The notes under the pieces: generated by a model
Databases searched by the model: none
Seen by the model: only the letters and a program-made list of their open reading frames with translations
Told to the model about the DNA's origin: nothing
Position numbers and translations under genes: made by a program
Shown here: positions 12,615-43,984 of the stretch, piece after piece
How positions within the stretch are numbered: position 1 is the first letter of the stretch
Layout of the letters: each line of letters starts with the position of its first letter
NCBI GenBank assembly: GCA_054600435.1
Contig: BAAIJX010000016.1
Coordinates: 310,001 to 374,000 of the forward strand
DNA from: Neophaeotheca triangularis
Lineage: Eukaryota
Length of the DNA: 64,000 nucleotides
Reading direction: 5' to 3'

Positions 12615-12624
12615 AAAAAAAAAA
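12615..12624 (-). terminator. RNA polymerase III terminator (T10) for the tRNA gene
   Basis: First run of 4 or more T on the tRNA sense strand, about 85 nt downstream of the discriminator base. Confidence 0.7.
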
Positions 12625-12630
12625 GATGGA

Positions 12631-12700
12631 TTGCAAGATTGTGGACAATCTCGTAATGGATTTAGACGGTAGTTTGCAAGTCTGTTGACAGACTCGTCAT
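12631..12700 (-). repeat. Two tandem 27-nt hairpin repeats (period 43 nt) in the tRNA 3' trailer
   Basis: Minus strand ATGACGAG-TCTG-TCAA-CAGA-CTTGCAA (12674-12700) and ATTACGAG-ATTG-TCCA-CAAT-CTTGCAA (12631-12657). Confidence 0.8.
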
Positions 12701-12709
12701 ATTCAAGGC

Positions 12710-12872
12710 TGCCTGGACTCAGAATCGAACTGAGATTTGAGGATTACTTGAAGTAATCAGCCTGATGAAGCATGCTCATATATCTAGAATTTAGTTAGCG
12801 ACTGTAGCAGATCAGAGCAGAATTTTGAAGTGACTCACGAGACCTCCGTCCTAACCATTAGACGATCCGGGC
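12710..12872 (-). tRNA. Elongator tRNA-Met(CAT) gene with two introns: spliceosomal-type 12784-12838 (between C34 and A35) and canonical tRNA intron 12745-12780 (37/38)
   Basis: Predicted mature 72-mer GCCCGGATCGTCTAATGGTTAGGACGGAGGTCTCATAATCCTCAAATCTCAGTTCGATTCTGAGTCCAGGCA. It has a D-arm GTCT/GGAC with GG, a T-arm CTCAG-TTCGATT-CTGAG, anticodon stem GAGGT/TCCTC with U31-U39, loop CT-CAT-AA and discriminator A. There is one C4-A69 acceptor mismatch. tRNA fold is high confidence; Met identity depends on the first intron being removed. Confidence 0.85.
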
Positions 12873-13234
12873 TGTGGATTGATGGTCGTTGGGAGTCAAA
12901 ATTTAATATGACCTTTCAATTTTGTGTGTTTTCTTAAATGCCTCGGTCGTGCACCTTTTGGCACGCTAATTACGGCACACTCACAGGCGCTCTGCAGACT
13001 GATAAGCTTCTTCTTATCGGGTGAGCTTCACAAGAAAGTGAAAGTGCCAGCTGGCTGACATCAGAACAAGTTTCGAAACATCTGGACACATTGCACGTCT
13101 CTAACATTCCCTCGAGGCCTTTTCTGTTCAAAGTAATATCCTCGAGAACACTACAAGCAATCAAATGTACTAAGGATACCCCTACCGACTTCCCTTAGTC
13201 GATCAAAATCACCCGTCTGCCGTATCACGAAAAA

Positions 13235-16200
13235 ATGTTACCCTCAATCGGGGGCCGCAATGCAGCCCTCTCCCCCTTTACTCTCTGCATCGCCCTCTTC
13301 CTCCTCCTCGCCACCACCGCCAACGCCGCCTCTAGCGTTTTAGGCATTGACTTTGGCACCCTCAACCTCAAAGCTGCCCTCGTAAAACCCGGCATTCCCC
13401 TCGAAATCGTCCTCACAAAAGACTCGAAACGCAAAGAAGCCGCGGTCGTAGGTTTCAAACCCTCCCGGGACGAGAAGAACAAAATCATCGCCGAAAATGG
13501 CAAGTTCCCGGAACGACTATACGGTGGGGATGCACTGGCATTGCAGGGTAGGATGCCCGGGGAGGTCTTCCCGAATCTGAAACCGCTGTTGGGACTATCT
13601 GGGTCGGAGGCTGCGGAACGCGATGTTGAGGCTTATAGGTCGCGGAATCCTGCATTGCAGGTTCAGCACGATGGGGACCTTGGTACGACGGTGTTCAAAA
13701 GTGAGGCATTCACCGAGCAGGAGCAACCGTGGAGTGTGGAGGAGCTGTTGGCGATGGAGCTGGCGAATATCAAGCGTAATGCAGAGGGGTTGGCGAAGTC
13801 AAGCGTGGAGGACGCAGTCGTCACTGTGCCTGCATTCTACACTGCGGACGAGAGGAGGGCAATTGAGACGGCCGCGGATCTGGCTGGGTTGCATGTCATG
13901 TCGCTCGTGAGCGATGGTTTGGCTGTTGGGCTGGACTACGCGAAACCTAGGACCTTCCCAATGGTGACTTCGGGCGAGCAACCTGAACATCACATTGTGT
14001 TCGACATGGGAGCTGGATCTACCACAGCCACCCTTCTACGGTTTCAGGGCAAGAGTGTTAAGGATGTCGGACGTTTCAACAAGACGGTTCAAGAGGTTGC
14101 TGTGGTTGGTGAGGGCTGGGACCGCACACTCGGGGGTGATGCACTGAACAGTGCCATTGTCGAGGACTACATCAACAAATTCTTGCAAAAGTCGGAGGTT
14201 AAGAGTCAGGGAACAACTTCCGAGGGGCTCAGAAAGAACGGCAGGCTTATGAGCAGGCTGTTCAAGGAGGCTGAGAAGGCCCGCCAGGTACTGAGTGCGA
14301 ATTCGGACACCTACAGCTCGTTTGAAGAGCTTCTGCCAGACATCGACTTCAAAGTTAAGCTCACGAGGGCGGAATTCGAGCAGCTCACCGAAGGCCTTGC
14401 TAAGCGTGTTACTGTCCCTCTGGAGGAGGCATTGGCCGCGGCGAAGCTTACCATGAACGATATCAACAGTGTCGTGCTGCATGGAGGCGCCATCCGTACG
14501 CCTTTTGTTCAGAAGAAACTGGAAGCACTTGTTGGTGACAATGCCAAGCTACGGACCAACGTTAACGCGGACGAGTCTGCTGTTTTTGGTGCTGCATTCA
14601 AGGGTGCTGGTCTCTCGCCTTCCTTCCGTGTCAAGGAAATCAGAGACAGCGACATTGTAGGATACGCTACGGGCATGACTTTTACCGATGGCAGCAAGGA
14701 TCGCCGCCAGGTTCTATTCAGCCCCACCAGCCCTGTAGGCTCTGGTGCAGCCACCAAACAGGTCGCCTTCAAGGACAAGGATGACTTTTCTTTCGGTCTC
14801 TTCCAGGTCGTTGGCGACGTTGACCGGCCCGTCTCGCGCGTTCAAACCACCAATCTGACTGATGGCGTCGCTCAACTGAAGGAGAAATTCGGCTGCGAAA
14901 AAGACGACATTAGCACCAAGTTCAGCATCAAGCTCAGCAATATCAATGGCCTGCCTGAAGTCCTCTCCGGCTCAGTAAGCTGCGAAGTAGAGGGGTCAGG
15001 AAAAGCAGGCGGTATGATGGACTCTGCAAAAGACTGGCTAGGATTTGGGAAGAAGAAAGACCAAGAAGCTGAAGATGAAGAAGACGCAGGGCCGACTGAA
15101 GAGGTAGAGGCCTCAACATCCTCTGCGACCAGCGATGCCTCTTCGGCCTCCGACTCCGCTTCCGCCAGCGCCTCCAAAGCTCCCGAAGCCCCCAAGAAGC
15201 ACACGGAATCCGTCATGGTCTCTTTCACCAGCACATCGCAGGGCAACCCCCAACCCAACCCCTCTCAGATCAAATCAATGAAAGACCGCCTCGCAGCCTT
15301 TGACCGCAGCGACGCCGCGCGCTTCGCCCGTGAAGAAGCCCTCAACATACTCGAATCCTATACCTACTCGACCCGCGACTTCCTCGCCAACACCGACTAC
15401 ACGTCCTTCGCAACCGATGCTCAACGAGAGGCCATCAGCAACCTTCTAACCAGCACCCGCGAATGGATGGAGCAACCGGGACAAATGGCTTCAGCAACCG
15501 AATCCGCCTTCAAAGAGAAACTCCAAGCGCTCAAAGACCTCGTCACGCCGATCCAAAGCCGCCGCAAAGAAGAACTCGCTCGTCCGGAGAAAATCACCAC
15601 TCTGCGCGACAGCCTTTCCAAATCCGAAAAATTGATCACCAACATCGAATCCCAGCTCTCGCGCGCCTCGAGCGAATCCAGCACTTCCACATCCACTCCA
15701 AGCACCACCTCTACATCCACCGTCGACGACCTCGAAGACGGCGACGAAACAGCTTCCCCTTCACCTAAACCGTCCGACCCCCCGGCCTTTAGCACACCCT
15801 ACACCGACTCCGACCTCGCTGACCTCCGCGATACCCACGCCAGCATAGCACAATGGCTGACTGACAAGGAAAGCGAGCAACAAAACCTGCCCTCGCACGA
15901 GGAACCCGCGCTCCTGGTTACAGACCTCGAAGCCAAAAGCTCCCAATTGGGGCTTATAACACGCAGAATCCAAGACAAAAAACTGCAACCAAAACCGAAG
16001 CCCAGGTCTTCTTCGTCCAAGAAGTCGACGAAGAGTAAGAGTGCTAAGTCGTCCAAGACTAGCACGGCGGATGGTGAGGACAGCACGGATGGGCCGCCGA
16101 TTGTGGATTTGGATATGGAGGCTTTGAAGGAGGCATGGAGGGAAGGTGGGGAGGGGGTAGATGAGGAGGAGATTTTGAGGCTGGTGGAGGAGGCCAAGGC

Positions 16201-16261
16201 TAGGGCTGGGAAGGGGGAAGAGGTTGTCCCTGGCGAGGAGGGGACGCATGATGAGCTTTAG
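13235..16261 (+). CDS. LHS1: ER-lumen Hsp70-family nucleotide exchange factor Lhs1/GRP170 (HYOU1)
   Basis: 1008-aa ORF with signal peptide, VLGIDFGT, VKPGIPLEIVLTKDSKRKE, FDMGAGST, VNADESAVFGA and C-terminal HDEL. Confidence 0.95.
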   Translation: MLPSIGGRNAALSPFTLCIALFLLLATTANAASSVLGIDFGTLNLKAALVKPGIPLEIVLTKDSKRKEAAVVGFKPSRDEKNKIIAENGKFPERLYGGDALALQGRMPGEVFPNLKPLLGLSGSEAAERDVEAYRSRNPALQVQHDGDLGTTVFKSEAFTEQEQPWSVEELLAMELANIKRNAEGLAKSSVEDAVVTVPAFYTADERRAIETAADLAGLHVMSLVSDGLAVGLDYAKPRTFPMVTSGEQPEHHIVFDMGAGSTTATLLRFQGKSVKDVGRFNKTVQEVAVVGEGWDRTLGGDALNSAIVEDYINKFLQKSEVKSQGTTSEGLRKNGRLMSRLFKEAEKARQVLSANSDTYSSFEELLPDIDFKVKLTRAEFEQLTEGLAKRVTVPLEEALAAAKLTMNDINSVVLHGGAIRTPFVQKKLEALVGDNAKLRTNVNADESAVFGAAFKGAGLSPSFRVKEIRDSDIVGYATGMTFTDGSKDRRQVLFSPTSPVGSGAATKQVAFKDKDDFSFGLFQVVGDVDRPVSRVQTTNLTDGVAQLKEKFGCEKDDISTKFSIKLSNINGLPEVLSGSVSCEVEGSGKAGGMMDSAKDWLGFGKKKDQEAEDEEDAGPTEEVEASTSSATSDASSASDSASASASKAPEAPKKHTESVMVSFTSTSQGNPQPNPSQIKSMKDRLAAFDRSDAARFAREEALNILESYTYSTRDFLANTDYTSFATDAQREAISNLLTSTREWMEQPGQMASATESAFKEKLQALKDLVTPIQSRRKEELARPEKITTLRDSLSKSEKLITNIESQLSRASSESSTSTSTPSTTSTSTVDDLEDGDETASPSPKPSDPPAFSTPYTDSDLADLRDTHASIAQWLTDKESEQQNLPSHEEPALLVTDLEAKSSQLGLITRRIQDKKLQPKPKPRSSSSKKSTKSKSAKSSKTSTADGEDSTDGPPIVDLDMEALKEAWREGGEGVDEEEILRLVEEAKARAGKGEEVVPGEEGTHDEL

Positions 16262-41181: not shown

Positions 41182-42151
41182 TTTGGGGCGTGGAAGTTTA
41201 CGCCCGCAGTCTTGTACTGAGGTGACGAAGGGGCGAGGAAGTCAGGGCGTTCTTTATGCCCTGGTCAAGATACTAGTCGTTCCGATGGCATTGAGGCAAA
41301 GGCACACCAGGGAATATGAAGATTGCGAAACTTATCTCGGCAAGAAGGTTACTTCTTTGGTGGAGGATTTTCTGAACGTCCCGAGGTGGTTCTGAGGAGC
41401 ATGGCGGTGTTAGCGATTTTTAGTGTAAGTCGCAGAACCACGGCGCCTCGTCTAATCTACTGAGGCTGCACTTTGCAGTTTGTTCTCAGCGCCGAGAGTA
41501 TGACGAGCAGTCAGACTCTGCCATAGAAAGACTGGGAAGAAGAGCGGACGCTTCGTCGTATCGTGCTCTTCCAGGCTGATGATAGGTTTTGCTGCTGAGG
41601 AACCCATTGGCAAGCCTTCCTATGATTTTCAAGCGGTTGGTTTACAATACTGGTAGTACAGTAATAACACAGAGTCCTATTTCATGCCTTGAAACTGACT
41701 GCTGTGTCCGAGACACCTTCAAGGTTAACATTGGATACCTTCCCTACAGGGGGTTTATCTTGGCTACGCTCGATAAGGGAAGCTTAATGGCACATCGACT
41801 CCCTTATCTCGCTCCGTCGTTTCTCCGATGCAAATCCTGACGACCTCCTCTTTAGATTAGACTCGACGAGACAGAAGCCTCGCCTCGAACGGTTACATCC
41901 TGCTATAAACTCTACTTACCTGAGAGCTACTCATCGGCCTTTGGATAATACACCATGCCCCTCCACGTTACTCGTCGGCAATGCCGGCACGACTCTGCGA
42001 CCTGCCCACTTCTGATACCAACACCCTGACCCAGCCATTCTTACGGCCATTCGGATCTCCAATCTTCCTATATCATCAGAGAATGGGAGTCTTGCTGCTC
42101 CCACATGCACCTCCCTGAGCCTTGTTGAATCTGTTCGCGATCATTTCCACC

Positions 42152-43984
42152 ATGGACCGCCGACGAAGCACAGTCGCAGACGACACCCAGTTGGCCGCCC
42201 TGGGCCATCAACAGGAGCTGAAACGGAACTTTTCCTTCCTGTCTATGCTGGGTCTGGCATTTGCAATTCTCAACTCCTGGACGGCTCTCAGCGCCTCTCT
42301 CTCACTCGCCTTACCCAGCGGAGGCCCTGTCAGCGTGATATGGGGGCTTGTGACAGCAGGTAAGCGATACTTCAGCTCAGATTGGTGCTTCACAGCTCGG
42401 CCGCTAACAAGCATCTTCAAGGTGTCTGCAATCTCTGCCTCGCAGCCTCCCTCGCTGAATTTCTAAGCGCCTACCCTACAGCAGGCGGTCAATACCATTG
42501 GGTCGCGGTCATTAGCCCGGGAAAGTGGATGCCCATATTCTCTTGGATAACAGGCTGGATCAACGTCTCTGGATGGATCGCTCTAACAGCCACGGCGGGC
42601 TTACTCGGCAGCGACCTAATAGTGGGTGTAATTGCGCTATACCACCCTACGTATGTGGAAGCACGATGGCAGCAATTTCTGATATATCTGGTGTACGCCG
42701 CTATAGCGTTTGTCGTGAATGCTTTTGGCAACGCCATACTGCCGTACGTCAACAAAGTGGCCATAACATGGACTATCGGTGGGTGGGCGATCATTTGCAT
42801 TACGGTTCTGGCTTGCGCAAGCCCAGACTACAACAGCGCCGAGTTCGTGTTTGCAGAGTTCATCAACACTACCGGATGGCCAGGCGGGATAGCGTGGCTT
42901 CTCGGGCTTTTGCAAGGTGGACTTGGCCTAACAGGTAAGTCGGCTTACTCTAGGCTCTTTATTTGCCCAGCTGACTCGTTTTAGGCTACGATGCAGTCGC
43001 TCACATGATTGAAGAGATCCCGGACGCAGCTGTTGAGGGTCCCAAGATCATGATCTACTGCGTAGCCATTGGCGTTTTCACCGGCTTCGTATTTCTCACG
43101 TGCCTCCTTTTCGTCTCCGGCGACGTAGACCAAGTCATCGAGTCCAACGCTGGCCCACTTGGTCAAATTCTCTACAACGCAACCAACAGCCGCGCGGGCA
43201 CTGTTTGCCTGCTGATGTTTCCAATCCTTTGCCTCCTCTTTGCGGGAGTTTCCATTATGACCACCAGCTCTCGCATGACGTACGGTGAGTTTGCTCGTCC
43301 CATAGAGTAGATCCCCGGACCTTCCCACTAACTCCCGAACCAGCTTTCGCCCGCGACTCCGGTCTACCTTTCAGCCGATATCTCGCAAAAGTCCACCCAC
43401 GTCTCGAGGTCCCTCTCAACGGCCTCTTCCTTACAACAATCTGCGTGGTCATCTTCGGCCTCATCTTCCTGGGCTCTAGCGCGGCCTTCAACGCCATCGC
43501 CTCCGCTTCGGTAGTCGCTTTGGGTCTTACCTACGGGATACCAATTCTTCTCCACGTCGTTCAAGGCCGCTCCAAAATGCCTCCAAACCGACCCTTCAGA
43601 CTCCCTGAATGGTTAGCGTGGCCTGCCAACATCATAGGAGTGGTCTATGTCATAGTTACGACGGTCCTCTTCGTCTTTCCCCCTGCGCTCCCTGTCAGCG
43701 GCAGCTCGATGAATTACTGCATCGTTGCTTTCGCCATTGTCATTATCATCAGTACCGTGCAATGGTTCATCGACGGGCGCAAGAATTACACTGGCCCCGT
43801 TGTCGAGATTGATACGAACTTGCTTGTTGCTGCTCAGACGAACGAAACAGCCTTTTCAACGCAGACTGAGATGGCAAAGGAGACGAGGACTAGGGATGAC
43901 AAGTCCAAAGGCAGCTTTGCTGGCGAGTCAATCGGAACCGCGGAGACGGGGATGGAGAAAGAGAGGGAGGATTTGGGGGTTTGA
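42152..43984 (+). CDS. APC-family amino acid/choline/GABA permease (ACT subfamily, Hnm1/Uga4-like), 4 exons; introns 42360-42421, 42935-42984, 43285-43343
   Basis: LGHQQELKRNFS, GGPVSVIWG, SLAEFLSAYPTAGGQYHW, GYDAVAHMIEE, SSRMTYAFARDSGLPF and MNYCIV; many hydrophobic segments. Confidence 0.93.

Follow-up and report, generated by a model that had tools for sequence, protein, structure and literature searches.

The tRNA gene and its surroundings

The window analyzed here is the whole 64,000-nucleotide (64 kb) stretch of fungal DNA, in which one tRNA gene of 163 nt lies on the minus strand at 12872..12710, with G1 at 12872 and the discriminator A73 at 12710. The gene was delimited with the Rfam tRNA model RF00005 and with ARAGORN when introns are allowed. 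It is the sole Rfam tRNA match in the window and the sole candidate in our own pattern scan for a T arm joined to an acceptor strand, and neither the Rfam tRNA model nor that scan found any other split tRNA gene in the window. RF00005 scores the gene at 37.8 bits, above the gathering threshold of 29, with E-values of 2.9e-6 for an 801-nt query and 2.3e-4 for the whole window; this score is modest. Under permissive filters, the Rfam alignment covers the model from end to end and places 95 inserted nt in the anticodon loop. The Rfam gathering run with default fast filters gave no match in the window, and default ARAGORN, run without introns, reported no gene in the 64 kb. With introns allowed, ARAGORN returned one gene, a tRNA-Thr(cgt) whose parse combines an intron of 80 nt with a variable arm of 15 nt; this parse was dropped, and the Rfam alignment, which has a 4-nt variable loop, was preferred.

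The tRNA body follows the order acceptor, D arm, G26, anticodon stem, 4-nt variable loop (AAAT), T arm, and A73. The acceptor strands, GCCCGGA and TCCAGGC, form six of their seven pairs and the stem is not fully paired, the exception being a C4.A69 mismatch. The anticodon stem is built from GAGGT and TCCTC with U31 facing U39, and the T arm reads CTCAG-TTCGATT-CTGAG. A15 with U48, G18 G19, T54 T55 C56, and A58 are all present, the A and B box regions are intact, and no run of four T occurs inside the gene. Sequence and Rfam alignment divide the gene into a 5' exon (12839..12872, minus strand), which holds positions 1–34, that is, the acceptor, the D arm, the 5' strand of the anticodon stem, and C32 U33 C34, and a 3' exon (12710..12744, minus strand), which opens with A38-T39-C40-C41-T42-C43 at 12744 and continues through the variable loop, the T arm, and the acceptor 3' strand to A73.

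A TATA-like TATTAA, putative in its role, lies 36 nt upstream of G1 (12903..12908, minus strand). The first downstream T-run, which consists of 10 T and is the likely Pol III terminator, is found 86 nt after A73 (12615..12624, minus strand). Between the tRNA 3' end and this run is a T-less trailer of 85 nt (12625-12709, minus strand) with two short hairpin-forming repeats; trailers of this length are unusual among tRNA genes transcribed by Pol III. The tRNA gene is located 363 nt upstream of, and divergent from, an intron-free gene on the plus strand (13235..16261) that encodes a 1008-aa Lhs1/HYOU1-type Hsp70 of the endoplasmic reticulum ending in HDEL. By this gene, the window is assigned to Ascomycota. 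No ORF of at least 100 aa overlaps the tRNA gene on either strand.

The linear reading of the anticodon

Counted linearly from G1, positions 32–37 read C-T-C-G-T-G, which gives the anticodon CGU and places G37 at 12836. The preliminary description had stated that, without spliceosomal splicing, positions 34–37 read C-G-T-G and are followed by the same 3' exon; the position count bears this out, with 91 nt (12745..12835, minus strand) between the two. These 91 nt are what the tRNA splicing endonuclease (TSEN) would take from the unspliced precursor, and they overlap a 55-nt candidate intron, an A-T-A triplet, and a putative 36-nt intron, all described below. The span singled out in that description, 12745..12840, runs from U33 through the last intron base. 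The 72-mer left after removal of the 91 nt is called Thr(cgt) by ARAGORN.

Anticodons with U36 are expected to be followed by A37 (t6A). The CGU reading has G37 instead of the A37 that would be looked for in a tRNA-Thr, the anomaly that the preliminary description had noted. In the predicted fold of the CGU 72-mer, U31:A38 and C32:G37 are closed, which leaves a loop of only 4 nt. A histidine reading, which could be considered for the presence of GTG and a His-like body, was rejected: GTG occupies positions 35–37, and a shift to accommodate it would put C at position 33.

A candidate spliceosomal intron nested in the anticodon

GTGAGT (12838..12833) stands directly 3' of C34, CTAAC (12798..12794) is found 40 nt on, and TAG (12786..12784), the first AG past CTAAC, comes 10 nt later. 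Together they delimit a candidate spliceosomal-type intron of 55 nt (12784..12838, minus strand). The GTRAGT, the CTRAC, the nearby YAG, and the typical length of a U2-type intron are all found in it, and, as judged from its sequence, the unit carries every fungal spliceosomal intron signal. The same signals would explain the linear reading. Because a GUR 5' splice site placed directly after C34 must show C-G-U-R at positions 34–37, CGU and G37 are the GUG of the 5' splice site in tRNA numbering and therefore need no function of their own. On this reading, the CGU with its G37 is not a designed second anticodon.

The window itself offers a standard for local introns. Strict GTRAGT..CTRAC..YAG units occur five times on its two strands (128 kb), the 55-nt unit being one of them. 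Two of the five are proven introns of 50 and 59 nt in a permease gene, where the frame is kept between long ORFs and the flanking exons match positions 42-196, 204-300, and 302-426 of the Pfam profile AA_permease_2. This amino-acid permease gene lies at 42119-43984 on the plus strand, and both of its introns are in phase 1. Since the 50- and 59-nt introns share the strict form, real introns of this genome look like the unit in the tRNA gene, whose length of 55 nt falls between the two.

The strict unit is rarely reproduced by chance within the tRNA gene. When the 94-nt insert was dinucleotide-shuffled 200,000 times, 166 of the shuffles contained it at some position and 34 had it starting right after C34. 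Across the window, the five observed units compare with a mean of 2.47 (sd 1.66, maximum 7; 100 shuffles, both strands), and the motif is not clearly enriched. Very many windows were screened for the preliminary description, so a rare coincidence is possible. A second copy that would mark the 55-nt intron as a repeat or a mobile "introner" is absent from the window.

The predicted spliced form and its CAU anticodon

When 12838..12784 is removed in the script, positions 34–37 become C-A-T-A and the anticodon loop becomes CUCAUAA. CAU followed by A37 is missing from the linear DNA and appears only after this removal. The A-T-A at 12781..12783 (minus strand) would be a micro-exon supplying A35 U36 A37, and the next 36 nt (12745..12780, minus strand) would be a tRNA-type intron at the canonical 37/38 site. 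The length of 91 nt, long for a tRNA intron, would then arise because it is the sum of 55 and 36. ARAGORN calls the resulting CAU 72-mer Met(cat), its minimum-energy fold is the cloverleaf, and A37 after U36 in the spliced loop fits the t6A rule.

Elongator tRNA-Met carries U31 opposite U39 in yeast, plants, and humans, and its variable loop is of 5 nt. U31, U39, and A73 are all in the present sequence, and so both U31 and A73, by which we judged an elongator tRNA-Met, are found. The D arm and the 4-nt variable loop, in contrast, are ones that we take to resemble His-, Glu-, or Gly-type tRNAs rather than elongator Met. The tRNA had been described as having a Met body; that label is backed for the anticodon arm only (U31.U39, C32, A37, A38, and A73) and does not extend to the D arm and the variable loop. 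PMC7797078 gives U31 as the Pus6 target peculiar to yeast elongator tRNA-Met, the one cytosolic target of this enzyme, and PMC9976931 places the pair 31-39 among the positions that distinguish eukaryal tRNA-Met.

Predicted endonuclease cleavage and the order of the two reactions

TSEN recognizes the mature tRNA body, measures from it to the splice sites, and needs a proximal base pair between the anticodon region and the intron, according to PMC10485636. The preliminary description had likewise held that TSEN locates its cut sites largely by measuring from the tRNA body. In the present gene, the 37/38 site is accompanied by a C32 (12841) that is pairable with the G at intron position -3 (12747), in the unspliced and spliced precursors alike, since both carry the same 3' part of the insert. 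TSEN acting on the unspliced RNA would therefore be expected to cleave at GUG|AGU, yielding CGU with G37. It had been proposed that TSEN, if it acts first, could excise all 91 nt to give a tRNA with a Met body and a CGU anticodon, either a second product or a misdecoding species; this route fits the sequence and the published TSEN rules. The CGU and G37 are explained without a second product. A35-U36-A37 lies within the 91 nt, and the spliceosome must therefore act first for a CAU product to form. As the sequence is read here, the order of the two reactions would be obligatory for that product.

The subunits of the SEN endonuclease are located on mitochondria in both S. cerevisiae and S. pombe, as reported in PMC6169838. 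By analogy, we infer that compartments alone could set the order in the present fungus, with nuclear splicing preceding cytoplasmic tRNA splicing. An order set by RNA folding was considered and rejected. The pair probability predicted for the anticodon stem does not exceed 0.02 in the unspliced RNA or 0.08 once the first splice has occurred, so that the stem is about equally weak at both stages and thermodynamics offers no cue to the order.

The anticodon stem is predicted to be weak because of an inverted repeat at the 3' site and a decoy partner in the intron. The repeat, GATTACTT-C-AAGTAATC, comprises 17 nt straddling the 3' tRNA splice site (12742..12758, minus strand) and was recognized from a self-match of 16 of 17 bases and from the folds. 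In the predicted folds it covers the 3' splice site, ties up A38-C40, and competes with the anticodon stem. A pairing possibility lies at the start of the 36-nt intron, where TATGAG is the exact complement of CTCATA, positions 32–37 of the spliced form (12775-12783 / 12836-12841, minus strand). Since TATGAG directly adjoins the anticodon after splicing, the normal anticodon-intron helix is not predicted. In the unspliced RNA, TATGAG is predicted to be able to pair with CUCGUG via two G.U pairs.

Interpretation and alternative explanations

The explanation that we regard as best, and hold with about even confidence from the arrangement of the sequence, is a gene with nested introns whose sole intended product would be a CAU tRNA; the CGU form would be a look-alike that arises automatically and is made through leakage at most. 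The locus would be a nuclear ascomycete tRNA gene with its anticodon broken between C34 and A35 by an ordinary 55-nt U2-type intron, which would border a normal tRNA intron of 36 nt on its 5' side. The precursor would be transcribed, probably by Pol III, and the spliceosome would then join ...CUC to AUA... to create C34-A35-U36-A37. The tRNA endonuclease would next cut after A37 and before A38, taking out the remaining 36 nt, and after ligation the mature tRNA of 72 nt would have the loop CUCAUAA and decode methionine. Location would be the main factor keeping the order, given a nuclear spliceosome and an endonuclease that would sit on the mitochondrial surface, as it does in budding and fission yeast. 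A CGU species, if formed at all, would be a minor product of leakage, and its anticodon loop would be poor; charging of this species with threonine would be harmless, and rare charging with methionine is conceivable.

Several observations weaken the case for a nested Met gene. These are the acceptor mismatch, the modest Rfam score, the long trailer, a body that is not like elongator Met, and the lack of relatives in metagenome, genome, and viral contigs. Model-based results that also weaken it are the low predicted probability of the anticodon stem, the absence of a predicted anticodon-intron helix, and a motif frequency that is not clearly above chance window-wide.

The locus may instead be a dead or silent copy that is decaying and makes no useful tRNA; its ancestor may have been a functional gene in which the nested intron was already present. 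The C4.A69 mismatch, a score of only 37.8 bits, the scans of metagenome, genome, and viral contigs in which no relative was found, the distance of 86 nt from A73 to the first T-run, the weakly predicted anticodon stem, and a body presumably nearer to the His/Glu/Gly type than to elongator Met would all suit decay. Against decay stand splice signals, A and B box regions, and tertiary partners (A15/U48, G18 G19, T54-A58) that are all intact, a spliced 72-mer predicted to be a cloverleaf, and the absence of an internal T4; in addition, a single mismatch is tolerated in some working tRNAs. We consider this possibility unlikely, although it retains appreciable weight.

The linear reading would be taken at face value if the locus were simply a tRNA-Thr(CGU) gene whose single canonical intron is 91 nt long and contains splice-site look-alikes that arose by chance. 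Both the ARAGORN call and the linear count put CGU at positions 34–36, the insert starts at the 37/38 site with C32:G(-3) available, CUCGUG can pair with UAUGAG in the insert to give six further pairs on the anticodon stem in a constrained fold, and the strict motif is not enriched window-wide. Against this stand G37 after U36, which violates the A37/t6A rule, the predicted shrinkage of the CGU 72-mer to a 4-nt loop, the occurrence of the full motif right after C34 in just 34 of 200,000 shuffles, and a length of 91 nt that would need a separate explanation; U31.U39 is, to our knowledge, not a trait of tRNA-Thr. A plain threonine gene therefore appears quite improbable.

A programmed dual output, in which CAU and CGU tRNAs would both be intended and their ratio would come from competition of splicing with export or TSEN, is very improbable. 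Both routes obey known TSEN rules. According to PMC9976931, threonine identity lies in G35, U36, and acceptor pairs, to which yeast adds A73, and this yeast element is present here. Methionine identity rests on CAU, yet the E. coli MetRS mischarges tRNA-Thr(CGU), according to the same source (PMC9976931). One gene could in principle feed two decoders in a regulated ratio, with nuclear splicing in competition with export to the cytoplasmic endonuclease. The CGU tRNA would then either be charged by ThrRS and serve as a hidden threonine isoacceptor, or now and then receive methionine from MetRS at a low level, in which case Met would occasionally be inserted at ACG codons; we give this very little credence. 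The CGU with G37 follows automatically from the 5' splice site, and G37 together with the predicted collapsed loop would make a poor decoder. Finally, the GT-AG unit could belong to a Pol II transcript, for example a divergent one that starts at the Lhs1-like promoter (~13.1-13.2 kb) and runs through the tRNA gene, the tRNA itself never being spliced by the spliceosome, and the divergent position 363 nt from the Lhs1/HYOU1-like gene and the long T-less trailer are consistent with this, but the lack of any ORF of at least 100 aa over the tRNA gene on either strand and the restored perfect anticodon loop, which it leaves unexplained, make it highly unlikely.

Relation to known systems

The spliced form proposed under the nested-intron explanation is close to the elongator tRNA-Met genes of plants, which have the loop CUCAUA, an intron ending in ..AGUA, then AUCC, and U31 opposite U39. 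The present gene would share with them the loop CUCAUA followed by an intron ending in ..AGUA and then by AUCC, as well as U31 opposite U39. Unlike the present gene, the plant genes have a short tRNA intron only and an anticodon that is contiguous in the DNA. With canonical TSEN/SEN tRNA introns, the locus shares an insert at 37/38, of 36 nt or, in the unspliced reading, of 91 nt, and a C32 pairable with position -3 (PMC10485636). It differs from them in that no normal anticodon-intron helix is predicted and the anticodon is not found as three adjacent bases in the DNA.

The intron of the fungal U6 snRNA is the nearest precedent. In PMC5855946, the U6 snRNA of S. pombe, which is made by Pol III, is described as spliced by the spliceosome, and mRNA-type introns are reported in many fungal U6 genes and also in U1, U2, and U5. 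Like U6, the putative host here is a small structured noncoding RNA, normally made by Pol III, with a short intron that has canonical 5', branch, and 3' signals. The fungal U6-type introns are otherwise unconserved and often species-specific, as the same source indicates (PMC5855946). Unlike U6, the host is a tRNA and not a component of the spliceosome, so that reverse splicing at the catalytic center gives no explanation of its origin, and the putative intron interrupts the anticodon itself and is nested next to a second intron, which belongs to a different class.

The disrupted tRNA genes of Archaea, red algae, and nucleomorphs, which include split and permuted genes and genes with several or oddly placed bulge-helix-bulge (BHB) introns, are similar in being multiply interrupted and in being missed or misnamed by gene finders, as described in PMC3978253 and PMC4090602. 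In those BHB-type genes, according to the same two sources, the tRNA endonuclease excises the inserts at the bulge-helix-bulge, whereas the present insert has GT..CTAAC..AG and no BHB motif was seen in it. A search of full-text literature, whose coverage excludes most subscription journals, returned no paper describing tRNA genes with spliceosomal introns.

Should the 55 nt truly be spliced out, a single tRNA would require two splicing machineries, unrelated to each other and acting in a fixed order, and its anticodon would not be present in the genome as three adjacent bases. Gene finders would miss such a gene or name it Thr instead of Met, and fungal tRNA inventories would be distorted. The supply of the tRNA would be tied to spliceosome activity, and the locus would offer a clean natural experiment on whether precursors that are due for nuclear splicing first ever reach the tRNA endonuclease.

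Searches for related loci

Relatives of the gene were sought with patterns made from its two halves. The 5'-half pattern (24 nt) gave no match in metagenome contigs, a looser gapped pattern gave a single unrelated locus there (L001), and the 3'-half pattern gave only five unrelated bacterial or viral loci, on two Ligilactobacillus genome contigs and three viral contigs (L002-L006). The metagenome locus (L001:330-580, minus strand) contains a complete tRNA-Glu(CUC) gene, scored by Rfam at 54.5 bits and placed by ARAGORN at c[388,460], flanked by the apparent 5' and 3' halves of another tRNA-like gene that is similar to it. Pairing is possible between the outer acceptor strands, and the arrangement looks as if one tRNA gene were inserted within the anticodon region of a second. 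The five bacterial and viral loci share, at about position 300, an identical T arm and acceptor 3' strand ending ..TCCGGGCA together with conserved upstream sequence. ARAGORN found a tRNA at none of these five loci, and the shared element may represent a prophage attachment site that carries the 3' fragment of a tRNA.
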